Origin: a virus
Lineage: Duplodnaviria > Caudoviricetes
Strand: one strand, 5' to 3'
Virus record (IMG/VR): IMGVR_UViG_3300008255_000098
DNA: 64,000 bases
The translations under genes were made by a program, and so were the position numbers. This document shows, piece after piece, positions 1,491 through 62,260 of this stretch. The first letter of the stretch is position 1, and every line of letters begins with the position of its first letter. The notes beneath the pieces were generated by a model. That model was not told the DNA's origin. It saw only the letters and a list, made by a program, of their open reading frames with translations, and searched no databases.

Positions 1491-1780
1491 TATATTTCCT
1501 TACCTTTGTTGTTTTCACATGAACTACCCACCCACGACAGCTTAGCTGTCGTGGGGTAGATTTCGGAGGTCATAGACTTGCCTAATAATGGTAACGCCTT
1601 ATTCTGTTTTTGTTTAACACCCGACTCAGTTCCTGAGTCGGACAGCATTTTTAAATCTTGGTTTTTAATATTTATGTTTGTATCAAAATCTCTGTCATGT
1701 ACAGTATTACAACTTTTCCAGGTCCACGATGCGTTTCGTTTGGTGTAATTTAATAAAATATATTCTTTGAAGTTGCTCAC
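1490..1780 (-). pseudogene. Degenerate C-terminal remnant of an IS200/IS605 TnpB
   Basis: WTWKSCNTVHDRDFDTNINIKN resembles the TnpB zinc-ribbon/RuvC-III motif W.C..C...HDRD.NAA.NI; the following SGTESGVKQKQNKALPLLGKSMTSE resembles a TnpB tail; the ORF runs through an IS right-end hairpin. Confidence 0.65.
1519..1564 (-). mobile_element. IS200/IS605-type right end / omegaRNA 3' hairpin (copy A)
   Basis: Minus strand GAAATCTACCCCACGACAGC-TAA-GCTGTCGTGGGTGGGTAGTTCAT: perfect 11-bp stem followed by a GGGTAGTTCA terminus typical of tnpB element ends. Confidence 0.7.
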
Positions 1781-5537: not shown

Positions 5538-8500
5538 TCAAATATTTCCAGCTTGACTATTATTACTCGTAGTAGAAGCATTTTCGTTTGAAGATTCTTC
5601 TGCACGCCTAATTTTCATTTCTTGTAGTATAGCACCAACATTATAAATTGGGGAAATCATATTTCCATTTACGTCGATTCCAGGATTCAAATCATGAACA
5701 GGAGCAAACTCTAATTCTACCGTACACCACTTTGGAGCCTTTGAATTTTGATCTTCAGTTTCCCAAATAGCCCCCTCCCAGTTAAATCTAATTGATTTAA
5801 TAAATCCTGCCAAGCCTTGTCCTTTTGTGGATTCAAAAGATTTAAATATTGGGTTACCGCCGCCGTCGCCTTGTGCGGAACTTGTTCGTGTACTAGCTCC
5901 TCCAATATCGTCAGGAGAGAAAAACTGTGATATTTTTCTCCACGGCTCGTCATCTGGCGTTCCAGAAGATTGTGTCGTCGGACTTACATTTGCAGCCGCC
6001 GCAGCTTCAACAACTGGTTTGTTAATATCAAATCTAATACTTTGATAATTTTGTGTGTTTTGTTGTGGACGAAAATCAATTTCATATATAGTTCCAGCTG
6101 CTTCGCCAGCTAGTCCAGGAGTAAAAGTAATTCTATAAGCACTATCTGATATCTTTGAGGTTACTGTTGCAATAGAATTTACTTGGATTTGTGGTGGAGT
6201 TGGTAAGTTACCATGAGCATGATTTCGCCTTTGGGCACGTATGGCAGCTGTTTCGGCATGTTGACGTTGTGTGCGTTGTTGCCGTGTTTCTCCCGCATGA
6301 GGGTCTGTTGTTCTCCTAATCGCCTTATTCTCACCAACATTACCAATTGTTTGTATTGCTTCTGTTATTTTAAATTGTTCTCCAATATTAAAAGAAGGAA
6401 GATTATTTTCAGTAGAAATACCAAGTTGTCTATCTCTGATATTTTTGTATTCATTCAGGAAGGCATCTTGTGTTTGTCTATCTGACAATGCTACTCCATC
6501 AGTGACATCAAAATCTCTGCTTCCTAAACCAAATAACCTTGCTAGGTCAAATTCATTGAAATTCGATTTAATTAAATCTCCAACTCTAAGTCTGATCATT
6601 GGAGAAGACGAAGGGAGTTGTGAAAATGGTTGTATAAACTTCTTTCCATTATGAGAAAGTGCTCTACCGAGGGTATATTGTGGATATAACATCATCAAAA
6701 TTTTATTAAGTTTATACCACATAACATCAAATCCTGCTTGATTTGTAGCTACTGTTTTAAAACTTAGGCTTATGGCTCTATTAGTATTTTTATATGTGTA
6801 TATTTTACCAATTCTTCCATAACCTTCACTCTCATTGTAATCAGCAGAATGCGAGTCAGATATATTGTCTATAAATGCGTGAAATGAAATAATTTCATTT
6901 GTCCTAAGATCATGAAAATAGAAAGGCATATAATATGAGTCTAATCGTTCTTCAGTTTTTTTAACAAAATCAGCAGATAGTCTTTTGTTGTCTGTTTTGA
7001 CAAAATTTCTTCTACTGCTTAAAATATTATATTTATTAGTATTTCCAAAGCCTGACTCTGCGCTCATAATACTGCTGTTTATCATATAAAGAGCAGGTAA
7101 AGTATTCGCATTCCATGCCATAGTATTTTTATAATCTGCGGCAAGAATATCAGATAGTCTATTTTTTTTAATTAGAGCTGATGGATTCGGAACTATAGAA
7201 GTTTGGTTTGTTTCACTCCCCAGTTTGTTTTCTGATATAAAATCTACTGTGTTATCTATCGTGCTGTCATAAGAACTATTGTATTCTGTGGATAAAACTA
7301 AATCTCCTATATTGGCCATAACATTCATAAATTTTAAGAATCTTGATTCTTTAATAAGTCTAATTGACGCAGAAATTGTTGTTGGGTCACTTGCTGGTCC
7401 TGTAATCGGTTGGTAATCAGCAGGACCATTAGATAGAACGGTTCCAATATCCCCATGTATTCTTGGACCAATGCTTAAAATAGAGGACAGCGGATCCGCA
7501 ATTGAACGTACCAGAAGCCGTAAAATCCCATTATAATAACCAGGGGATTCTACAATTTTTGTTGGTGCTGAGCCAAGTTTGACTCCGCTGGTAATATTTG
7601 AGCCGAAAAATACCTCAAGACCAGCCCGCACTGCATCATCGTATTTATTTTGAGTTGCTACTAATAGATTTTCATTTAGACCGAGTAAAGCTAAACCAAA
7701 ATTTGGATCAGATTCATCTTCCTTTGGAAGGTTACTACCCAACCTTTTTCTTCTTACTTCTAAATCTGTTGGGCCATCTGGCCAAGGACTAATATTGTTT
7801 CCTCTTGGGCTAAATTTACTTAAACTTTTTGCTAAATTTAGAAATATAACAGAAAATGTTTTTACTAATAAAGTTCCAACTATTATACTTGATGTAGCAC
7901 TAGAGATAGCTGAAAAAGGAACAAAAGGGTTGTTTACGCTTCCAAAAGAAGCTTTAGCGCCTGATTTGAGTCCAAATCTCTCCCCAGGGTTTGAGAAATC
8001 ATTACTTTTATTTAACATTTCCTCAGCACTAAAACGGTTTGCATTAACTCGAAAGCCTAAGCGAGCGGTACCAGGAGCTGTTTGGGTTATTGCTCTAGTC
8101 GCTAACTCCTGTCTAACATTGTCTAGGTCTTCTGGAATATAGTGTTCACCAGAGGCTTCTAATAAAATTTGATACCCTATGTTACGAAGTTTTTTAATTG
8201 AAATAGTAGGGTCCTTCTCAGCTATTCCAAAAAGTCTTTTGGGGGAATGTCCGCCAAGGCGGGATTGCAAGACATGTTCCCTAGTTCCAGCTTCATCTTC
8301 AGTAAGTTGCCCGTCAACACCTGGGACATAAAGGTCATCTGGACTTTGTAGAGAATTTTCTTTGATTGTGTCAGAAATTTGCCCAGAAAACAATTCAGGA
8401 TTCTCGTTAAGTCCTGCTAGGAGATTTGAAGCTTGAATTTGCGTCTCAATATCTATATCCCCTGCGTTTCCAGGAATAACATCTTTTTGAAAATATCCAG

Positions 8501-8792
8501 CTACTCCAACTTTTTCAAAACTTGCTTGTATTTCAGTGGTTTGTTTTTGTAAATGAGCATTACTACTAGGGTCGTTATTTACGAACACACCAAGGTTAGG
8601 ACCATCCTGTATGGCAGCGACGCTGCTATTGGTTTTATCAGGAATCATTTGTTGAAAATATTCACCAATTTTTACCTTGGTTCCAGTAGAAAAATCGTCT
8701 TCTCTAACATGAACAAGCGGGTCGTCACCACGACGTGCCCTGTCCCCGTTTTCTAGAATTATTTTCTCTGGTATGTCGTCTCTGTCGGTCAT
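5538..8792 (-). CDS. Putative tail-tube initiator/baseplate protein (gp48/gp54-like C-terminal domain) with long N-terminal region
   Basis: FHAFIDNISDSHSADYNESEGYGRIGKIYTYKNTNRAISLSF and SPMIRLRVGDL motifs typical of tube-initiator-like folds; lies directly downstream of the TMP. Confidence 0.6.
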   Translation of the reverse strand: MTDRDDIPEKIILENGDRARRGDDPLVHVREDDFSTGTKVKIGEYFQQMIPDKTNSSVAAIQDGPNLGVFVNNDPSSNAHLQKQTTEIQASFEKVGVAGYFQKDVIPGNAGDIDIETQIQASNLLAGLNENPELFSGQISDTIKENSLQSPDDLYVPGVDGQLTEDEAGTREHVLQSRLGGHSPKRLFGIAEKDPTISIKKLRNIGYQILLEASGEHYIPEDLDNVRQELATRAITQTAPGTARLGFRVNANRFSAEEMLNKSNDFSNPGERFGLKSGAKASFGSVNNPFVPFSAISSATSSIIVGTLLVKTFSVIFLNLAKSLSKFSPRGNNISPWPDGPTDLEVRRKRLGSNLPKEDESDPNFGLALLGLNENLLVATQNKYDDAVRAGLEVFFGSNITSGVKLGSAPTKIVESPGYYNGILRLLVRSIADPLSSILSIGPRIHGDIGTVLSNGPADYQPITGPASDPTTISASIRLIKESRFLKFMNVMANIGDLVLSTEYNSSYDSTIDNTVDFISENKLGSETNQTSIVPNPSALIKKNRLSDILAADYKNTMAWNANTLPALYMINSSIMSAESGFGNTNKYNILSSRRNFVKTDNKRLSADFVKKTEERLDSYYMPFYFHDLRTNEIISFHAFIDNISDSHSADYNESEGYGRIGKIYTYKNTNRAISLSFKTVATNQAGFDVMWYKLNKILMMLYPQYTLGRALSHNGKKFIQPFSQLPSSSPMIRLRVGDLIKSNFNEFDLARLFGLGSRDFDVTDGVALSDRQTQDAFLNEYKNIRDRQLGISTENNLPSFNIGEQFKITEAIQTIGNVGENKAIRRTTDPHAGETRQQRTQRQHAETAAIRAQRRNHAHGNLPTPPQIQVNSIATVTSKISDSAYRITFTPGLAGEAAGTIYEIDFRPQQNTQNYQSIRFDINKPVVEAAAAANVSPTTQSSGTPDDEPWRKISQFFSPDDIGGASTRTSSAQGDGGGNPIFKSFESTKGQGLAGFIKSIRFNWEGAIWETEDQNSKAPKWCTVELEFAPVHDLNPGIDVNGNMISPIYNVGAILQEMKIRRAEESSNENASTTSNNSQAGNI

Positions 8793-8803
8793 ATTATATC
8801 TAA

Positions 8804-8968
8804 TTATTCACTTGACAATTTTTGTATTGGCTCTAATAGATTCTTTTCAAATCGCTCAGTTATTTCCTGTAGTGCTTTTAAAATTACAACTCGTTCGTCT
8901 TCAGGAAGTTTTTCCAAAAGTTCTTTGTAATAAGGATCGTTAATACACTGCTCAAATATTTTTTCCAT
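8804..8968 (-). CDS. Small hypothetical protein (54 aa)
   Basis: Not in track. MEKIFEQCINDPYYKELLEKLPEDERVVILKALQEITERFEKNLLEPIQKLSSE* fills the gap between TMP and the next gene. Confidence 0.7.
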   Translation of the reverse strand: MEKIFEQCINDPYYKELLEKLPEDERVVILKALQEITERFEKNLLEPIQKLSSE

Positions 8969-8983
8969 CGTCTTTCAACCTAA

Positions 8984-11900
8984 CTATGGGGTATGTTTAG
9001 TTGCTATGTTGTTGCCATCTCTATTGATCAGCACATCTTCAAGCTCTTTAGCGTCAATATTTATTGTAAAGTTTACATTCAAGTTAACTGGTTCTTGTGC
9101 AATGTGTAGGTTTCCAGTAGAAGTTAAACCAAGTTTGTGATTTAGCTCGGTAAGTTTTGTAACAATATTAAATCCAGAGGCGCTAGAAAGAACTCTACTA
9201 ATTCCAGCCATTCTTTCTGTTAGAGCAGTAACGCCAGTAGAGACACGTTCAATCATAGCACTATCAAGATTACCAGCCGCAGATTGAATGTGCCCTCCTA
9301 TTTCTTCAGTAGCAGCCAATATATCTTTCAGTCTATTAGCGTTTGATAGTGCCCTAGGAGGAACTGCTGTCCTTCCTAGCTCGTCTATTGCATTTAACCA
9401 GTGAATCCCTTTTCCGGCACCAGAATTCCAGTTCCTCATAAACAAATGTGCAAAAAACGTATTAACGCCTTTCATGTCGTTTCCACCACCAGATAACCTA
9501 TTAATAATACCACTTTTCAATAGTTCTCCTAGAGAACCAACAGCCTCTAATACGCCCTTTATTCTTGTTGCATTTGTGGAAGCCTGTCTTGGAATTACTA
9601 CTGTACCCAAAGATTTAATTGAAGATATTATTGTGGCTCCACCAGAATCTGAAAATAATGCTTGTAATATAGCCTGGACGCCATCAAGACGGGCTTCAAA
9701 CAACTCTTTACCGCCGGATATATCAGAACCACCTGCGCCAAGGGTGTTTACAGCGTCGGTAAGAATGTTGATCAACCCAAAAGTATCTGAAACAACTGGT
9801 ATAATCGTCTTAAGCCTACTTATTTCTCCAGGTCTTAACCCTTTTGCCATGGCTAAAATACTGTTAATAACTCTAGGTATTTCTGTTTTTAGAGAAGAGA
9901 AAATTCCCAAAGAATAATTCTTAAGCATATCCCCAACGGCAGAAATAGCCGCAGGACCTGCTTTAGACATGTCTTTAATATTGTCAAATGACATAGACGA
10001 AGATAAACTTTTTACAACTTCTACGATTTGTTCGAAAAGAGAACTTGTTAGTTTGATTTGTTCTATTTTGTCTGTTGGAATACTATTTGCTATTCCTGCA
10101 AAACTAGACATAAACTCACTCATAACAGGCATAAAATCTTTAATTATGTTCAAAGTGCTAGTCATATATTGGCGTAAAAAGTTTAAAAAGTCAGCTGCCG
10201 GGTCATTTGCAACTTCATAATTTCGCCCGCCGCCGAACAACTCAGACATGTTATTTGCTCCATTTGCGAGTGCTTTTGAAAAAGATGAAGCACCAAGTGC
10301 AATGCCAGCCACACCGGCATTTGCCCCACTTGGGACTAAGGCTTGTAGCAAAGACCCAATCCCTGTTAAAAATGAGGAGAATGCTTGAACTTTTCCGGTA
10401 TCCACGTTTGGCATTCCTTCTAATAGTTTTAAGAACCCTAAAGTTTGTGGAACTAGGTAAGTTAAAGCGCCGGTCGTCAATTTTAAATAATTTCCTGCTG
10501 CCATAAGGATTTCTGGCGTAAGTCCAATTGTAGCTGCCATGTTATCAAATAATTCTGGCGGGGGAACCAAAGCTTTGGCTAAACCACCGATGGCGGCCAA
10601 TATCGCTGCTACTTTATCTGCTTTACTTAAATCCTCTACACTTACATCTTTGATTGCAGTAACCATTGTTTCTATCAATTGTCTTGATTGCCCTCCAATT
10701 GCTTCTACTAATCTAACTACCATTCCAATTGTTTTTGAAGTTTCTCCTTCTGGGTCTCTTCCGAAAGGATTCATTAGTAATCCCAAGAAAGACGGGGTAG
10801 ACATTTCAATTATGCTGCTTATGTTTCCGGCAAAGTCTCCAATTGCTTTAATGAGATTAACAAACACAGTAGATTTTTGTTCAAATCCTGCGTCAACATG
10901 TACATTATTAATAACTCTCATAATAGAAGTCGCATGGAGGGCAGCGGCTGTAGCAACCAACGCTATCATTCCCATGCCAGCAATCATAGCAAGGGCACCG
11001 AGCCCGGAGAAGGAAGATGCTAAAAGTCCAACTGCCGCAGCTACCAAGGTAAGCGCAGATGAGGCAAGATAGACAACTAGCATGGTTCCCATGCCGGTCT
11101 TAACGGTCTCTGCCATGCTAGGAGTAATACCTCCCATTATTTTAGAAATTAAAACAAGGTTTCCAGCCATTAAAAGGGTTAGAGCAGAAATTAGTGCTAC
11201 TCCTATTAAAGCTTTCCCAAAAACGCCTGGGCTGACACCGCTAAGCACTTTAGCTGCTAACGACACTCCAACCATGCCGACTATTGTTGCGGCGATTATT
11301 GTCAAAGGAAGAAGAGCATCTTGGATTTTGGTTATTCCACTACTAGTTAAAATTTTACTAATAGCAACAATAGAAAAAGCTACCGCAATACCACCTAGGG
11401 CTATTGCCCCAGCGATAGCTAATAGTTTTAATCCAAGTTTTACCGCAGCAGCAGCGCCAAAGCCCCTTGTCTCCGTTTCAACTGCTCTAGTTGCGCCCGC
11501 TGTAGCACCAACTTCCGCCATTGCCCCTGCGCCTGCTCCAGGTCTACTAACCCTTGAAAGATTATTACCAGCTTGCATGGTAGAGTTTACACCATGTTCT
11601 AATACCTTGGCGCCTTTACCTAGAATGCCAGATTTTACAAAACCAACCATGCCTTTTAGAAAGGCTACTCCGAGAGTCATTATAAGTGTTCTAGTAATCG
11701 CTCCAATAATTGCGGGCCCAAACAATATTCCAGCAATATAAGGTGCGGCTGCCCACAAGGCAGGTTTAATTTTTTCCCAAGCGATGGCAAACAAATCTAA
11801 TAAAGCATCTCTAAGTGCTGGCCAAGTATCTTTAATAGCCCTCCAAGCTGGCTCTATAAGTTCTACTATAAATGATAATAATCCACTACCTGCGGAGTTT

Positions 11901-19581: not shown

Positions 19582-20423
19582 TACTTTTCCTCAATAAATT
19601 TAAGTTCCACTGGAACATGAACGGAGGTTGCTTGTATTCCAGAATAGCTTTTATAATCTATTGTTTGTCCAGAAAGATATTTTGTATTTATTTGTTCTGT
19701 TGAAAGTTCCCCCGTAAATCTATTATTGTATTGTGTTTGAACAATATTAACAGGAATATTAATTAATCTTGGACCTTCGGTATAACAACACAAATATTGA
19801 GGAAAACCATTTTGCTTACTTACAGCGTCTAACATGGATTCAAAAGTATTTGGATTTTTATATCTAATCACAGAAGCAATATTTTTCATAATGTCTGTTT
19901 TATATACGTTCCCGTCAACTGACATTGGGTATCCCCAATCACCTTCTTTTCCCGCCCATGCCCAAACTATATTTTTAACAAAATTTGGTACGGAGCTATT
20001 TTTGTTGGTGGCATAACAATGTGTTACCCCCTTGTGTAGTCGAAGACTTACAGCAATCATTGACTGATTTTTGTCAAGGAATTCAAATTGTTTATCATCT
20101 ATGGAAACAGTATTAACGAAAATATCGTCATCAACTAAAAACATAATAAAATTTGCTGTGCTATTTTGTATCGTGTTTGTTAGTTGAGAATAAAAATCTT
20201 CTTCTTCCTGCCAAATAAGATTCTTTTTTCCTAAAAAGATTTTTTGTGTTTTTAGGTATCCCTTTTTAAATTCATCGGTAGTTGCCTTCCATAATACTGT
20301 TACTTTTGGATCAAGACAAATAAATTTATCATAAAACGAGGCAAGGCACGTATGTGCTTGTGAGGCTCTATTGCAAGAAAACAATATTACTTCTATTTGT
20401 TTTTCATTGGTAATAATATCCAT
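19581..20423 (-). CDS. Glycosyltransferase-like protein (GT-A fold)
   Basis: ILFSCNRASQ, FIMFLVDDDIF (DxD), DWGYPMSVDG, PNTFES. Confidence 0.65.
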   Translation of the reverse strand: MDIITNEKQIEVILFSCNRASQAHTCLASFYDKFICLDPKVTVLWKATTDEFKKGYLKTQKIFLGKKNLIWQEEEDFYSQLTNTIQNSTANFIMFLVDDDIFVNTVSIDDKQFEFLDKNQSMIAVSLRLHKGVTHCYATNKNSSVPNFVKNIVWAWAGKEGDWGYPMSVDGNVYKTDIMKNIASVIRYKNPNTFESMLDAVSKQNGFPQYLCCYTEGPRLINIPVNIVQTQYNNRFTGELSTEQINTKYLSGQTIDYKSYSGIQATSVHVPVELKFIEEK

Positions 20424-20671
20424 ATATTTTCCTGTAAGAATTTCAACAACTTGATTTGTTTTTTATTTATTAATATTTTTTTTTCTAAAGTAGTTATAAT
20501 TCTTTTTTCTAAAACTGATTTTGTTGCTAACTTATACTTTTGTATGGCAGCTATGTAATATTCTGTGTCTTTTATAAGAAGTCTGCATTCTGCTTCTAAT
20601 AACGCCGCTATTGTTTTGGTTTTTCCAGTACGTATTATATTCAAGTAGATGGTTTTCTTAAAAGAGTTCAC
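20393..20671 (-). CDS. Hypothetical protein
   Basis: 92-aa ORF with GTG start filling the gap; no motif. Confidence 0.45.
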   Translation of the reverse strand: MNSFKKTIYLNIIRTGKTKTIAALLEAECRLLIKDTEYYIAAIQKYKLATKSVLEKRIITTLEKKILINKKQIKLLKFLQENIWILLPMKNK

Positions 20672-20711
20672 GAAGATAACTATCTCAAGATTGTTTTATA
20701 TGACAAGGCGT

Positions 20712-20750
20712 AAAACCCATCCATCGTTTTTACGTGGGCGGCCAGCTCAC
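20712..20750 (+). mobile_element. IS200/IS605-type right-end-like hairpin (copy B)
   Basis: AAAACCCATCCATCGTTTTTACGTGGGCGGCCAGCTCAC: same 17-nt terminus pattern GTGGGYGRNYAGYTCAY as copy A. Confidence 0.55.
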
Positions 20751-20753
20751 CTC

Positions 20754-21470
20754 TTAAACAAATGGTTCAATCAAGCTCCCGTTGTCACCCACAAATCCAA
20801 ATGCACGTAACGTTAAATCAAATTCTTTAGTATTTTGTACTGCTTTTAGCATTAATTTAGCAAGCTCACAAACTTCTCGCTGTGCGTGTGTGCTATACCG
20901 CAGGCCAATAAAGTGTGAAAAACTTCTAAAATTAAACTGCATGTCACATAAAATTTGATTGCCATATGGCAAATAAAATCTTGAACTTTCTTTAGCCCTC
21001 TTTCGAGCTTCAGACTTTTTCATACCTTTTACTCTAATATAATGTTCGGTAAGCCTTATAAGTGAATTATGATATTTTTCATATGTTTTTTCCATATGTT
21101 CTAAATAAATCTGTATTTCATCATCTGGCCAATCATCTGGGATGAATAGCTTATCTTCTTTTAGTTCTTTGTATCTAGCTGATTCAGCATTAATTGAAAC
21201 GCCAATTCTGTGTTTTAGAAGATGTATATGTGTTGCTATATCGCTCTTAACTAAGAAATGTAATGCGCTCTTTTCGAATGGAGTGTGATGATTATTTTCA
21301 GCCAACATTTTTAAAAGAGCAGGAATTCGTGCTTCCTTCTCTGGTGTTAGCTCTCGTGAGGTACTGGTCCAAGCAGAACAAGCGTGCTCTCTATCTCCAC
21401 CATAAAAACCAATAAGTTCAACTGTATTTTGATGTTCTGATTCATCGTTAAATATTCTTTGAGTGTCCAT
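20754..21470 (-). CDS. thyX: FAD-dependent thymidylate synthase ThyX
   Basis: HHTPFE; KHRIGVSINAESARY (ThyX motif RHRx7SxR variant); SRFYLP; NFRSFSHFIGLR; AQREV. Confidence 0.95.
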   Translation of the reverse strand: MDTQRIFNDESEHQNTVELIGFYGGDREHACSAWTSTSRELTPEKEARIPALLKMLAENNHHTPFEKSALHFLVKSDIATHIHLLKHRIGVSINAESARYKELKEDKLFIPDDWPDDEIQIYLEHMEKTYEKYHNSLIRLTEHYIRVKGMKKSEARKRAKESSRFYLPYGNQILCDMQFNFRSFSHFIGLRYSTHAQREVCELAKLMLKAVQNTKEFDLTLRAFGFVGDNGSLIEPFV

Positions 21471-21599
21471 GTGAACTATGGTAGCACTACAAAAATAAAA
21501 TGTGTATCAGTATTATTCGTCAAAATGTGGGCCTTTTCATAAGTTTCTAGGTCGCATACACCTAGGCTTTTCGAAAAAAGTTTATCTTTAGTGTTATCA

Positions 21600-21640
21600 G
21601 TGACGCCCCAACAGGTTTGTTCTGTGGGTGAGCAGTTCAC
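21600..21640 (+). mobile_element. IS200/IS605-type right-end-like hairpin (copy C)
   Basis: GTGACGCCCCAACAGGTTTGTTCTGTGGGTGAGCAGTTCAC: hairpin plus the same 17-nt terminus. Confidence 0.55.
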
Positions 21641-21981
21641 TCATCTAATTTCTTAATTCTGTTTATTTCATCTTCTAAAAATGTAATTTTTCTTTGTATT
21701 CCTGGCATATCTGGGCTACTGTAGGTTGAAATTTCGACTAACATTATTTTTAAATTTGGGTCTTTCCAAATTCTAGTAACACTTCCTTTAATCTTTCGCA
21801 CAGAAGCTTCTTTTGGGTTGAGTCTTGATACAGATAAACCATATTCTGCTGCAATTCCAATCTCCTCTGGCGTTTTAAAATCAATTGATACTAAACTGCC
21901 AACAGAAATTTCTGTAAGACATTCTTTAATAGATCTTTCCTGTACTTGGTGCCAGGGAAAAAACTTACTCCAAAATGCCAT
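21637..21981 (-). CDS. Hypothetical protein (possible SH3/Sm-like beta fold)
   Basis: 114-aa ORF; ISVGSLVSIDF...KIKGSVTRIW...TFLEDEINRIK. Confidence 0.7.
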   Translation of the reverse strand: MAFWSKFFPWHQVQERSIKECLTEISVGSLVSIDFKTPEEIGIAAEYGLSVSRLNPKEASVRKIKGSVTRIWKDPNLKIMLVEISTYSSPDMPGIQRKITFLEDEINRIKKLDE

Positions 21982-31874: not shown

Positions 31875-34319
31875 TTATATGTTATTCTGCATTTCTCGCA
31901 ATTTCTTTCTAACAAAAGAATGTTCATCTTCGCTTATAGTACTTGTGTACTCACTTACTTCTTGGTCAGTAAGAATCCTAAGTTTAGATTTTGCAGTATC
32001 TAAATGAATCTGATATTTGATTCCATCAATACCTGCTCTGTTTTTAGCTATAAAAATGTTGCCAAATCCTGTTGCCTTGTTTGCAGATTTACGTAAAAGG
32101 CCTACAACAAAATCAGCCACGTGCGCTTGTCCGTACCCTTCAGCCATGTTTGTTAAATCAACAACGTCACTGTTAGCACCTTCTTTATTAGACTGAATCG
32201 CAGTCCAAATTGGAACATCAAGTTCGGTAGCTAATGCTCGCAACTCTTCCATAACCTTCTTCAATTCCAGTCTTAAAAGTTCATAACGGTCAGATGAACG
32301 CATAATACCAGCATAATCTACTAGAATTATATTTGGTACAAAGCCTTGTGTCGAAAGTTTGTCAATGTGGCCTCTAAGAGTCATAGCTGAGGCACTCGCA
32401 GTTGGGTAGTACTTGATCCTGAGTCTTCCAAGATTTTCTTTGTTTTCTTGGTAATATGTTTTGATTTCTTCTTTACAATCAAAACATTCGAGACTAGGAA
32501 TATCCATAATATGTGAGTCATATCTAATACCCATTGCTCTTTCGTTGAGTTCAAATGTGTAATGTAAAACATTACGTTTATGCAATAATGCCTGAGCACC
32601 CACATGAACTAAAAAGTGTGATTTTCCACAATTATGATGAACTATGAAATCTCCCGTTAGATATAAATGATCGCCTGTTAAAGTAAACCCGTAAAAATCA
32701 TCTTGTTCAAGAGCTTCAATTTCAAACCCGATGCGAGAAACATCTTTAATTTGACATCGTGGTTTTGCTTGTTTTCTTGCAAGACGTGTTGGTACAATTG
32801 ACGTTTCACCAAAAATTGTTACAGCATAGCACGTTCCAGAATAATTATTTTGACAACTTTTACTTGTCTTTTCGCTATAAGAAGCTAAACCTAAGCTTTT
32901 ACTTAAAAAGACAATATCATCAGCTAGTTGTTTGGATTTTGTTATATGACAAAAACACTTATTATTCAAATAACCACATGCGTCCAATAAGCCAGCAAGC
33001 ATTTCCAATCTATTTTTTCTGGAAGCAACTTTGTATTGTTGTGGAATAAATTTGTTCCCACCCTTCTTGCCCGCCAACCCAAGTTCGGACAAAATCTTTA
33101 CTATAGAATTGTTGTGTTTATAACCATTTGTAATGTAGTAGCCAGCTGTTTTATTCCCTTCTTTAGGGAGGCTTGAAATTCTAAACCCTGCGTTTGGAGC
33201 GAATTGCTGCCATTCATTTAAAATTTCCTCATCAGCTGTCGTTAGTTCAACTCTGTTTTTGTTGATAAAATCGCCGCCCAATAATGTTCCCAAAAGGTAC
33301 GGAGGAATTGGCAATTTTGTCTGGTATGTTTCTTCAAAAGACACACCTTTTGTGTATAACTTATATTGGTGTTTGAACGTTTTGCTCTTGTCTAAATAGT
33401 CTTTAACAGAAATGTTAATAACTTCGCCGTTCTTTTTTGGGTTTCTACTTTTGCACCCAAGATTTGTTCTCTGCAAAGAAAGAATATGATTTTCGTTGAC
33501 AACAAACGAGTCTCCCTTATTGGGAGTAATTTTGTACATGTTTTCTTTTCCACGTACTAATTTTAATACCCTTCTTGGTTTACTGTCCGACCCCATTATT
33601 AGGTCGCCGACTTGAATATCTTCAATTTTTTCCAAAGTCCCGTTATAGGTGAGAATTTCTGTACCTTTTGCATGACACCCAGTTGGAGCAATACACACTC
33701 CAAGTTCTCCAGCGCCAAGTCCACCGTTCAAGATTTTTCTTTGGTCTAATTCAGGAATACCAGTTGGTACTGTTTTTCGTGCTGTCTCAGAATATCTACT
33801 TTCAACATCTTCAAAAAGATCTAATCCCGGAGAATGATGATTCCCCGCATTAATTGCGGTTTTAACAACATCAATTACTTTGTCATATTTTTCTGATTCA
33901 ATTAGACCGACACTATCCATAAGCGCCTGGTGCAATCTTCTTCTTTTACAGAAGTCTAATGCTTTTTCTTTAACATGCGGTAAATCACCTAGGTCTTGGT
34001 TTGTGGCAACCTTTTTAAGAAAGGTTTTAATTTGGTCTAAAAGAAGCTTATCGTTCTGATTTTTCAATTCAGTTTTAAGCATTGTGATCAGCAACTCTGT
34101 TGATGGAAACTCCTTATATTTCCTATAATAGGACAAATAGGTTGAGGTTACCAACTTCAAATAACTAAATTGAAAAAAATCAATGTCGATAACTTCATTT
34201 AATTGTGAAGCCCACTGTCTGTCCATTATTAGGGCTTGGACTATTTTCTCTTGGAAAGATTTATCAAATGAAAAATGTGTAGGTTGTTGTTGTTGTTGTT
34301 CTGTCATTTCTTCTTGCAT
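31875..34319 (-). CDS. dnaB: Replicative DNA helicase (DnaB/gp41-like) with intein
   Basis: GLGAGELGV.IAPTG|intein|CGKS Walker A, ILVDYAGIM, WTAIQSNK, KNRAG. Confidence 0.92.
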   Translation of the reverse strand: MQEEMTEQQQQQPTHFSFDKSFQEKIVQALIMDRQWASQLNEVIDIDFFQFSYLKLVTSTYLSYYRKYKEFPSTELLITMLKTELKNQNDKLLLDQIKTFLKKVATNQDLGDLPHVKEKALDFCKRRRLHQALMDSVGLIESEKYDKVIDVVKTAINAGNHHSPGLDLFEDVESRYSETARKTVPTGIPELDQRKILNGGLGAGELGVCIAPTGCHAKGTEILTYNGTLEKIEDIQVGDLIMGSDSKPRRVLKLVRGKENMYKITPNKGDSFVVNENHILSLQRTNLGCKSRNPKKNGEVINISVKDYLDKSKTFKHQYKLYTKGVSFEETYQTKLPIPPYLLGTLLGGDFINKNRVELTTADEEILNEWQQFAPNAGFRISSLPKEGNKTAGYYITNGYKHNNSIVKILSELGLAGKKGGNKFIPQQYKVASRKNRLEMLAGLLDACGYLNNKCFCHITKSKQLADDIVFLSKSLGLASYSEKTSKSCQNNYSGTCYAVTIFGETSIVPTRLARKQAKPRCQIKDVSRIGFEIEALEQDDFYGFTLTGDHLYLTGDFIVHHNCGKSHFLVHVGAQALLHKRNVLHYTFELNERAMGIRYDSHIMDIPSLECFDCKEEIKTYYQENKENLGRLRIKYYPTASASAMTLRGHIDKLSTQGFVPNIILVDYAGIMRSSDRYELLRLELKKVMEELRALATELDVPIWTAIQSNKEGANSDVVDLTNMAEGYGQAHVADFVVGLLRKSANKATGFGNIFIAKNRAGIDGIKYQIHLDTAKSKLRILTDQEVSEYTSTISEDEHSFVRKKLREMQNNI
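32631..33677 (-). mobile_element. Intein (349 aa) with LAGLIDADG-type endonuclease domain in the helicase P-loop
   Basis: N-terminal CHAKGT, block B HILSL, C-terminal FYGFTL...VHHN followed by Cys+1; LAGLIDADG-like YLLGTLLGGD and LAGLLDACG. Confidence 0.92.
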
Positions 34320-40546: not shown

Positions 40547-40621
40547 ATTTCCTCATTATTGTAGAGATAACAATAATAAAAAAATTTGTAAACACATTAG
40601 TGTTTTTTAAATAACTTTTTA

Positions 40622-60658: not shown

Positions 60659-62260
60659 ATGTTTATGGAAAAAAATAAAATCGAAATTTTAGTAGAAGAA
60701 GTCGTTGACGACCTATTAGCGAAAAAACTCGTAAAGAAGAAATCTAAACGTAAAAAAATCGATAAATTATCATATGAATACGTATATTATCTTAAAAGGA
60801 AAGACCCGGCTCTTTTTGAATTATTAGCGGCACAAGCGAGATTCATAATTGCTGCTGTTGAGAATGGCTACTCTCCAAAGGATAAAATTATATCACTTAA
60901 TAAATTCCTAAAAATGGATAAAAAGTTAGATCCAAGAGACAGTGCTGATACCCATGGGGTAAAGTTAGTTTTAGATTATCTTGTTAGACAGCAAAAGATT
61001 AAAGATCCTGGAGAATTTGCAGGTAAGACAAAACGTTGGTATCAGGCAGCACTCGATGCTGTTTTGAGAGCTACATATGAAAAAAAACCAATCAAGGTTT
61101 CCAAGGAACAAGTTACATATAATAAAAAAAAGTTAAATGAATCGAGTGCAGTTCATAAATCATTTTATTTGGATTTGCCAGACGATCTACTAAGGGTGTC
61201 AGACATTTTTAAAAGCCATGGATACCAACTGTTTGTTGTTGGTGGCGCTGTTAGAGATGCTCTTATAGGAAAAGCACCAAAAGACTATGACCTTGCTACA
61301 AATGCAAAACCAGATGAAATTTTACAAATGTTCAATGGGGCTCCTGGCTTCCGCACATTAGAAGTTGGAAAAGCTTTTGGAGTTATTAATGTTTATACAA
61401 AAGAAAATAATGAATATGAAATTGCCACTTTTAGACGAGATTTAAGTGCCGGTCGTCGCCCCGATGCCGTTGAATTTACGACAATTGAAAATGATGTACA
61501 GCGCAGAGACCTAAGTATAAATGCACTGTTTTATGATATTCAGAAACAAGAAATTGTAGATTTTGTTGGTGGAATTGAAGATCTTAAAAACGGAATTGTT
61601 AAATCTGTTGGAGACCCAAAAGAACGGTTTGCGGAAGACCGACTGAGAATATTACGTGCCCTTCGTTTTGCTGCTCGCATGGGAACAGAGTTAGACACAA
61701 ATACTAGAAATGCAATTCTTGAAGATAACTCTTTATCTGGAGTTTCTCCAGAGAGGATTAGAGATGAGTTTTTGAAAAGTATTAAAAGTGCCAAATCGGT
61801 TGTTTCCTTGATGAAACTTTATGATACATTTGATTTATGGCCACAGGTTTTTCCTAATTTAAGAATAAATAAAGATTATCCAGAAACAAAAAATATACCT
61901 GTGCTTTTAGCTTTATTGTTACGAGAAAACAATCCTAAAAATTTAGGTAAAAACTTAAATAAGTTAGTGTATAGTGTTGTTGAAACAAAACAAGTGGTAT
62001 TTTTAGTTATGTTTCAAGAAATATCGCTCACTAATGCTTATCAACTTAAAAAGTTATTTTCTTCTACAAGACTTACAAACTCAGACCTTCTGGAATTTGG
62101 GGAAGAAAATAAAAATATTGATATGAAATTAGTAAGTGCTTTTACAAAATATGATCTATCTGTCAGTGGACAAGATTTATTAGATTTAGGACTTAAAGGT
62201 AGAGAACTAGGCCAAGAACTAGAACGTCGTGAAAACTCTTTATTTATGGATTTGGTATGA
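60659..62260 (+). CDS. cca: tRNA nucleotidyltransferase (class II CCA-adding/poly(A) polymerase family) with ~160-aa N-terminal extension
   Basis: VGGAVRD.L.G..PKDYDLAT, EIATFR, RRDLSINAL, EDRLRILRALRFAAR, SPERIRDEF. Confidence 0.92.
   Translation: MFMEKNKIEILVEEVVDDLLAKKLVKKKSKRKKIDKLSYEYVYYLKRKDPALFELLAAQARFIIAAVENGYSPKDKIISLNKFLKMDKKLDPRDSADTHGVKLVLDYLVRQQKIKDPGEFAGKTKRWYQAALDAVLRATYEKKPIKVSKEQVTYNKKKLNESSAVHKSFYLDLPDDLLRVSDIFKSHGYQLFVVGGAVRDALIGKAPKDYDLATNAKPDEILQMFNGAPGFRTLEVGKAFGVINVYTKENNEYEIATFRRDLSAGRRPDAVEFTTIENDVQRRDLSINALFYDIQKQEIVDFVGGIEDLKNGIVKSVGDPKERFAEDRLRILRALRFAARMGTELDTNTRNAILEDNSLSGVSPERIRDEFLKSIKSAKSVVSLMKLYDTFDLWPQVFPNLRINKDYPETKNIPVLLALLLRENNPKNLGKNLNKLVYSVVETKQVVFLVMFQEISLTNAYQLKKLFSSTRLTNSDLLEFGEENKNIDMKLVSAFTKYDLSVSGQDLLDLGLKGRELGQELERRENSLFMDLV

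Follow-up and report, generated by a model that had tools for sequence, protein, structure and literature searches.

In the haloarchaeon Haloquadratum walsbyi, the 1500-bp IS1341-type element ISHwa23 and the palindrome-associated transposable element (PATE) HqIRS46 have been cut down to 52-bp PATEs that consist of terminal sequences only (Dyall-Smith et al. 2011, PMC3119063). The route described is a repeat-mediated deletion between two near-terminal palindromes, and the authors raised the question of mobility of the 52-bp form (PMC3119063). PATE-like derivatives of TnpB elements are also found in Geobacillus (the ISGst elements; Meers et al., PMC10055086). Here we describe three sites in a phage, within a 64,000-nucleotide stretch (called the window below) of IMG/VR virus record IMGVR_UViG_3300008255_000098, that are very probably decay stages of one IS200/IS605 TnpB transposon family. 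Copy A is a truncated 3' end, copy B a 51-nt mini-element and copy C a degenerate end. The kind of element is already described (the 52-bp PATEs that arose by core deletion of IS1341-type elements) and the points of interest here are the phage setting, a widespread family of mini-elements and an element end that is compatible with stop codons.

Intact elements from other phages served as the yardstick. All scoring models were built from IMG/VR phage elements and contain no window sequence, and the comparison set was 160 phage TnpB loci from IMG/VR. Of the covariance models, R1 was made from 31 right ends of diverse phage TnpB loci, R2 from 15 right ends of intact L165-family elements and R3 from 21 IMG/VR mini-elements (59 model positions). 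An nhmmer full-element profile was made from six intact IMG/VR elements, and a separate nhmmer profile represented the left end. In most of the 160 loci the element stops 146-176 nt past the RuvC DRD codon, and its final part comprises GAAGCC, a hairpin with covariation and GTAGTTCAC. The family L165-L194, which has a TnpB of 422 aa, ends in ...GGAGTGTTGACTTCTGAAGCCCATCCCATCGCCTTTGGCGTGGGTGGGTAGTTCAC, and its last 18 nt, CGTGGGTGGGTAGTTCAC, are those of copy A with one base changed. The left end of this family reads TTTAT, about 5 nt, GGAGCGTAAAACCCATTCATC, a hairpin and then ATGTAAGCGACTCC, and lies about 55 nt before the start of tnpB. TTTAT is the last conserved flanking sequence, standing immediately before the left end in all six full-length members, each in a different context. 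By analogy with IS608 and ISDra2 we infer that TTTAT is the target motif, or transposon-adjacent motif (TAM), of the family. An intact copy of about 1.3 kb would be made up of TTTAT, a left-end leader (GGAGCGTAAAA) with its hairpin, tnpB (about 420 aa), an omegaRNA region that would overlap the 3' end of tnpB, and then GAAGCC, the terminal hairpin and GGGTAGTTCAC. In intact members a structured region of about 150 nt precedes the terminal hairpin, with 45 predicted base pairs, 18 of which show double changes. The intact family members examined showed no tnpA next to them.

The first-pass annotation of this DNA had reported three intergenic sites sharing a hairpin and a 17-nt terminus, and the termini are indeed there. 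The degenerate 17-mer GTGGGYGRSYAGYTCAY is found at 1519-1535 (-), 20734-20750 (+) and 21624-21640 (+) and, at two or fewer mismatches, at no other place in the window. The corresponding expectation of 0.07 sites is circular because the pattern was taken from the three sites themselves. A non-circular check was made with the 18-mer right-end consensus of the intact IMG/VR elements, CGTGGGTGGGTAGTTCAC, for which 0.01 hits are expected at three or fewer mismatches; the only matches in the window were copy A (one mismatch) and copy C (three mismatches). Copies B and C are intergenic, run in the same direction, are antisense to the genes and lie on either side of thyX, and the sequences that would serve as their guides run antisense to the 3'-terminal stretches of thyX and the 21637-21981 gene, all as claimed. 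Two parts of the description held for some copies only. The shared hairpin is stable in A (z = -4.9), whereas B (z = -0.35) and C (z = -0.84) fold no better than shuffled sequences, and the statement that no tnpA or tnpB adjoins the sites is right for B and C but not for A, which is directly preceded by a TnpB C-terminal remnant. When the three copies were aligned with 200-nt flanks, their likeness was limited to the last 20-40 nt or so. Rfam gave no match over the window at the gathering threshold, and at lax thresholds around copy A it gave chance-level matches only. The suggestion that the sites are right ends of IS200/IS605 TnpB elements, or PATE-like relics, is supported by the models built from intact elements elsewhere. 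For B it needs amending, since the right-end tail is present but belongs to a whole miniature element with its own left-end leader and TAM.

Copy A (1519-1745, minus strand) comprises the last 200-225 nt or so of an IS200/IS605 TnpB-only element, namely the 3' end of tnpB, the omegaRNA region and the right end. Positions 1123-1312 of the nhmmer full-element profile, the latter being the end of the profile, align to window positions 1726-1520 (envelope 1747-1519, E = 5.4e-15). The left end was not found, and the left part of the element is missing. The tnpB remnant is a pseudogene (1613-1729, -) with the second half of the zinc ribbon and the RuvC-III motif (...SCNTVHDRDFDTNINIKNQ...), in which one Cys of the CxxC pair has been lost. 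The minus-strand open reading frame (ORF) 1780-1490 holds ...SWTWKSCNTVHDRDFDTNINIKNQ..., which three libraries place at the extreme C terminus of TnpB: PHROG 506 transposase (positions 340-384 of 403, E = 1e-4), NCBIfam IS200_TnpB (335-358 of 360, E = 0.009) and Pfam PF07282 (38-60 of 60, E = 0.12). A tblastn search of phage genomes with the remnant gave matches almost only under annotated transposase or TnpB genes, in many phages, and residues 357-395 of the Microcystis phage Mic1 TnpB align to the remnant with 41% identity (E = 3e-6). A tblastn search with four phage TnpBs detected no further TnpB fragment in the window, including the surroundings of B and C. Note that the window is 64 kb of a larger genome and that the negative results for tnpB and tnpA given here apply to the window.

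The right end of A (1519-1583, -) has a GAAAUC leader, a hairpin of 11 bp or more and the tail GGGTAGTTCAT, and ranks first in the window with both R2 (25.3 bits, E = 5.8e-5) and R1 (20.2 bits, E = 0.028); the R2 match stops at the base predicted for it. The DRD codon lies about 178 nt before the end, as compared with 146-176 nt in the intact elements. Of the 45 consensus omegaRNA base pairs, copy A has kept 28 and lost 17, with disruption of the central stems, whereas intact copies keep 36-45. Copy A is best read as a 5'-truncated insertion, and what survives of the element is the tail of tnpB, an omegaRNA region in partial decay and the right end. A sigma-70-like site (TTTACA-17-TAAACT, 1787-1815, -) is located just upstream of A and would read through it into an FkbM-type methyltransferase gene (870-1490). 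A closely similar motif, TGTGTTTACAAATTT, is present in the intergenic spacer 40547-40621, near 40.6 kb, and the likeness of the two suggests a promoter type shared within the phage.

Copy B (20700-20750, plus strand) consists of the left-end leader ATGACAAGGCGTAAAA, one hairpin and a right-end tail ending in TCAC, 51 nt in all with no ORF. It ends 3 nt downstream of the thyX stop codon, in antisense orientation, and TTTAT, the putative TAM, lies immediately to its left (20695-20699, +). R3 matched 20693-20750 over its full length of 59 positions (47.1 bits, E = 8e-8). The top match of the nhmmer left-end profile in the window was the 5' half of B including TTTAT (20694-20726, E = 0.003). R2 ranked B third (10.2 bits, E = 0.58), with the match ending at the predicted base 20750, whereas R1 did not recover B in its search of the window. 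The tail differs from the right-end consensus at 4 of 18 positions, and B shares an exact run of 30 nt with mini-element L274. With a left end as its 5' half and a right end as its 3' half, together with the R3 match and the run shared with L274, copy B is, as judged from its sequence, a complete terminal-only miniature element of 51 nt.

Copy B has many counterparts. A pattern scan of IMG/VR for the left leader followed after 10-40 nt by the right tail gave 28 loci (L249-L276) with the left-leader, one-hairpin, right-tail build, where by our estimate about one is expected by chance. These 28 mini-elements have about 21 distinct flanks, and in about 20 of the 21 the element directly follows TTTAT. 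A separate 143-nt groundwater contig matches window positions 20708-20752, within and just past B, with six differences over 45 nt; it probably comes from another genome of the same community and represents a further member of the mini-element family.

Copy C (21586-21640, plus strand) is a degenerate right-end-like unit of 55 nt with a leader, a weak hairpin and the tail GTGGGTGAGCAGTTCAC. R2 ranked it fifth (8.0 bits, E = 2.3), ending at the predicted base 21640. Its tail has 3 differences in 18 positions from the external right-end consensus, and the tail GAGCAGTTCAC matches the right-end tail of intact element L135, a member of another subfamily, at 15 of 15 positions. The leader of C (..AGTGTT-ATCAGTGACGCCCC) resembles the right-end leader AGTGTTGACTTCTGAAGCCC, although it fits neither end well. 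We read C as a unit of B's general type that is of greater age and carries more mutations.

The terminal TCA of C, read on the other strand, is the TGA stop codon of the minus-strand gene 21637-21981, which encodes a 114-aa protein, so that C overlaps that stop codon. On the left of C is TTTAT (21581-21585, +), a putative TAM, the complement of which would give the original TAA stop of the same gene. In silico removal of 21586-21640 converts ...GAT GAG TGA to ...GAT GAA TAA and leaves the 114-aa protein identical, the result that an insertion beside a TTTAT carrying the TAA stop on its complementary strand would give. Because TTTAT is common in the window (8.25 per kb), the case for the TAM of C is made by its position and by this ORF check. 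The same arrangement as at 21637-21639 was found in 10 of 75 distinct IMG/VR insertions (4 of 20 mini-elements and 6 of 55 right ends, within L085-L276), in which the TGA of the right end stops a convergent ORF of 60-811 codons. It seems that an element end can replace a TAA stop that overlaps the TTTAT target. The end ...GTTCAC reads G-TGA-AC on the other strand, and therefore insertion at a TTTAT overlapping the TAA of a convergent gene would restore an in-frame stop, as at C. If this is true, insertion at gene ends would cost nothing.

The account that we hold with high confidence as a whole is that the three sites are non-autonomous remains of a single IS200/IS605 TnpB-only (IS1341-like) family. 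In this account insertions would survive at gene boundaries because insertions elsewhere in a gene-dense genome would be lethal. Copy B would be the residue after loss of everything between two similar subterminal hairpins, still beside its TTTAT. Repeat- or microhomology-mediated deletion of the core in place seems a slightly better than even bet for the formation of B, and arrival of a ready-made mini-element through the action of TnpA in trans the less probable of the two routes. The order of events, like the route by which B was formed, is our reconstruction.

The second of these routes, taken as an explanation in its own right, supposes that B, and perhaps C, arrived as a ready single-hairpin element of 50-55 nt moved by a Y1 TnpA acting in trans, whether from the host, from a co-infecting phage or from this phage itself, and that the mini-elements are an active phage mini-PATE family. 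The 28 IMG/VR copies would fit, given their uniform architecture, many flanks and nearly invariable location at TTTAT, as would the fact that most of them lie in stretches without tnpB in the fetched flanks. A precedent is ISHwa23 of Haloquadratum, for which all six strain-specific insertions are of the 52-bp form and possible mobilization was raised (PMC3119063). However, the mini-elements differ among themselves in stem and loop much as the full-length elements do, and such heterogeneity fits repeated independent deletions. Moreover, known IS200/IS605 transposition uses two hairpins; IS608 and ISDra2 TnpA proteins carry out transposition with two hairpins, one per end. For B itself no empty site was found, and its diverged tail, mutated stem and weak fold also speak against this reading. 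We therefore consider arrival of a ready-made element possible but rather unlikely. A bolder idea is that the 50-55-nt units are phage mini-elements that still move with one hairpin, or "immunity scars," or both. As a scar, the unit would hold TTTAT 51-55 nt away from the former target, so that the site would be uncuttable by the TnpB-omegaRNA of a co-infecting relative at the same locus. We put this forward as a speculation with a rather low chance of being right.

The remaining explanations fare much worse. The thyX gene (20754-21470, -; flavin-dependent thymidylate synthase, Pfam Thy1, E = 9e-30) had been proposed as a gene captured or mobilized between element ends, and as such it could be the cargo of a composite, of one-ended transposition or of co-conversion in TnpB-guided homing. 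Two same-strand ends do flank this single accessory gene, the context of which is not conserved among phage homologues. However, B is self-contained with its own left leader and TAM, C has its own limits from TTTAT to TCAC, and the left-end profile finds only B and nothing facing thyX, which lies outside any element. The G + C fraction of thyX (0.347) equals that of the window (0.348), and with 56 boundaries two of three elements would come to lie on either side of one gene by chance with p = 0.106. Moreover, 80 phage thyX loci from IMG/VR (at most 64% identity) lack the motif and have no common neighbors. An IS200/IS605 element needs a left end as well as a right end, and composites of such elements are not known. 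A synteny search of IMG/VR by way of the 558-aa neighboring protein found no relative. Given the separate bounds of B and C, the absence of a left end facing thyX, the equal G + C content, the p value and the homologues that lack the motif, the bracketing of thyX looks like a coincidence of two independent insertions in an insertion-tolerant region, and we regard capture as very improbable. Equally improbable is that B and C are working orphan guide-RNA genes of the omegaRNA or TldR type, directed at the 3' ends of thyX and the 114-aa gene through a TnpB-like protein encoded elsewhere. Right ends do mark the scaffold-guide junction in TnpB systems, and PATEs that keep omegaRNAs and need TnpB in trans have been described (PMC10055086). 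In intact members, however, the covarying scaffold occupies about 150 nt, whereas B has a left-end leader of 16 nt in its place and C about 20 nt, and the B and C hairpins are no more stable than shuffled sequences. The would-be guides have no second target in the window at two or fewer mismatches, and the window contains no TnpB-like ORF. Each guide is simply the element's own flank and has no adjacent TAM, an outcome that any insertion gives. The earlier idea of trans-acting guide scaffolds is not supported, because B and C hold a terminal hairpin only and lack the omegaRNA scaffold. Least credible of all is that the sites are ordinary phage terminators, regulatory hairpins or chance resemblances. 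Although B and C directly follow stop codons, neither has a stem plus U-tract on the gene (minus) strand, the clear terminators of this phage are different, and the matches to external transposon-end models far exceed what chance would give.

Several observations weigh against the reading of the sites as remains of one transposon family. Copy C is individually weak: its R2 E value is above 1, R1 and R3 did not recover it, its hairpin is no more stable than shuffles, and its TTTAT could be a chance occurrence of a motif found about eight times per kb. Searches of metagenome contigs for B, and of viral contigs for C and one IMG/VR mini-element, yielded neither an empty site nor a full-length allele, and so the insertion boundaries and the TAM are assigned by analogy. 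Both B and C are present in the same form in the contigs of four other groundwater runs, among which no variant without B or without C was seen; two joints noted in these contigs had short sides or foreign inserts. An intact tnpB or tnpA may lie elsewhere in the genome, outside the 64-kb window. The MAFFT alignment may understate the number of scaffold pairs kept by A, a reservation that bears on how far that copy has decayed. With B and C devoid of an omegaRNA scaffold and neither tnpB nor tnpA present in the window, the three copies are likely inactive today.

One contig in this region has an unexpected structure. L245 (a metagenome contig from ENA, 2152 nt long and with a low coverage of 2.6) is identical to window positions 20326-21682, and at 21682 it is joined to an unrelated sequence (L245:1-795). 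There a gene of the pyruvate:ferredoxin oxidoreductase type (Pfam POR_N) is fused in frame to the final 14 codons of the 114-aa gene. The contig may be either an assembly chimera or a true recombinant.

The phage to which the window belongs is T4-like, with about 34-35% G + C. Nearly all genes lie on the minus strand, and the window encodes T4 baseplate proteins, a T4-type terminase, ribonucleotide reductase and a UvsX/RecA-like protein. Identical DNA is present in metagenomes from aquifers and groundwater, and no RNA data set is listed among the sequencing runs that contain it. The window also has a selfish element of another kind, since a DnaB-like helicase gene (31875-34319, -) is split by an intein whose homing endonuclease is of the LAGLIDADG type (Pfam Hom_end_hint, Hom_end and LAGLIDADG_3). 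On the strand opposite to most genes, 60659-62260 (+) encodes a 533-aa protein having a poly(A) polymerase/CCA-adding enzyme head plus RNA-binding domains.

The TnpB-only family itself is common in the environmental phage contigs of IMG/VR. In one of its loci, L147, the intact tnpB (1135-2403, +) has on its reverse strand a 365-aa ORF (1146-2243, -) that recalls the 347-aa "TnpB_rev" of cyanophage A-1(L) (bioRxiv 10.64898/2026.02.14.705889). In L255, an IMG/VR contig of 13.4 kb, a mini-element (1288-1329), a full-length tnpB element (about 7730-8899, -) and a truncated right end that ends at 11139 are present, and thus several decay stages lie side by side in one genome, as in the window.

These results tie the puzzling G + C-rich intergenic hairpins of a large environmental phage to a specific TnpB transposon family that is widespread in phages, and they provide models by which both ends and the 51-nt mini form can be annotated. 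They also remove a tempting but unsupported gene-capture story for thyX. The core-deletion route to PATEs of about 50 bp, known from haloarchaea, would recur in viruses. The family, with its putative TTTAT motif and 422-aa TnpB, could be of interest to those who mine for compact RNA-guided nucleases.

In ISDra2 and the Geobacillus ISGst elements the left end with its TAM is followed by tnpB and by an omegaRNA that extends over the tnpB 3' end to the right end, with the flank as guide, and most such elements lack tnpA. Copy A keeps the 3' module of elements of this type. It differs in retaining only about 40 tnpB codons and in having lost 17 of the 45 scaffold pairs, whereas B and C have no scaffold, and TTTAT as the TAM of the family is a prediction from sequence comparison. 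REP/BIME (repetitive extragenic palindrome/bacterial interspersed mosaic element) repeats, on which RAYT (TnpA-like) proteins act, are likewise short single hairpins in intergenic DNA and are related to IS200/IS605 end structures. The likeness is an analogy only: the copy number here is low, and no RAYT gene or REP-type tetranucleotide was seen in the window, although no dedicated search was made. The window copies are closest to L165-L194 and the mini-elements L249-L276, and the features in common are a GGAGCGTAAAACCCAT... left leader, a CGTGGGTGGGTAGTTCAC right tail and TTTAT in front of the element. Relative to these elements the window copies are more mutated, and the tail of C, GAGCAGTTCAC, is nearest to the L135 subfamily. 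Copy B differs from the Haloquadratum PATEs in that it resides in a T4-like groundwater phage and belongs to an unrelated sequence family, and in that no pair of complete and deleted alleles was seen for it, the deletion route being a proposed one. Nevertheless, the 51-nt B and the 52-bp Haloquadratum PATEs share one design, in which a 5' leader, a single palindrome and a 3' terminal oligonucleotide stand beside a target motif of 4-5 nt.

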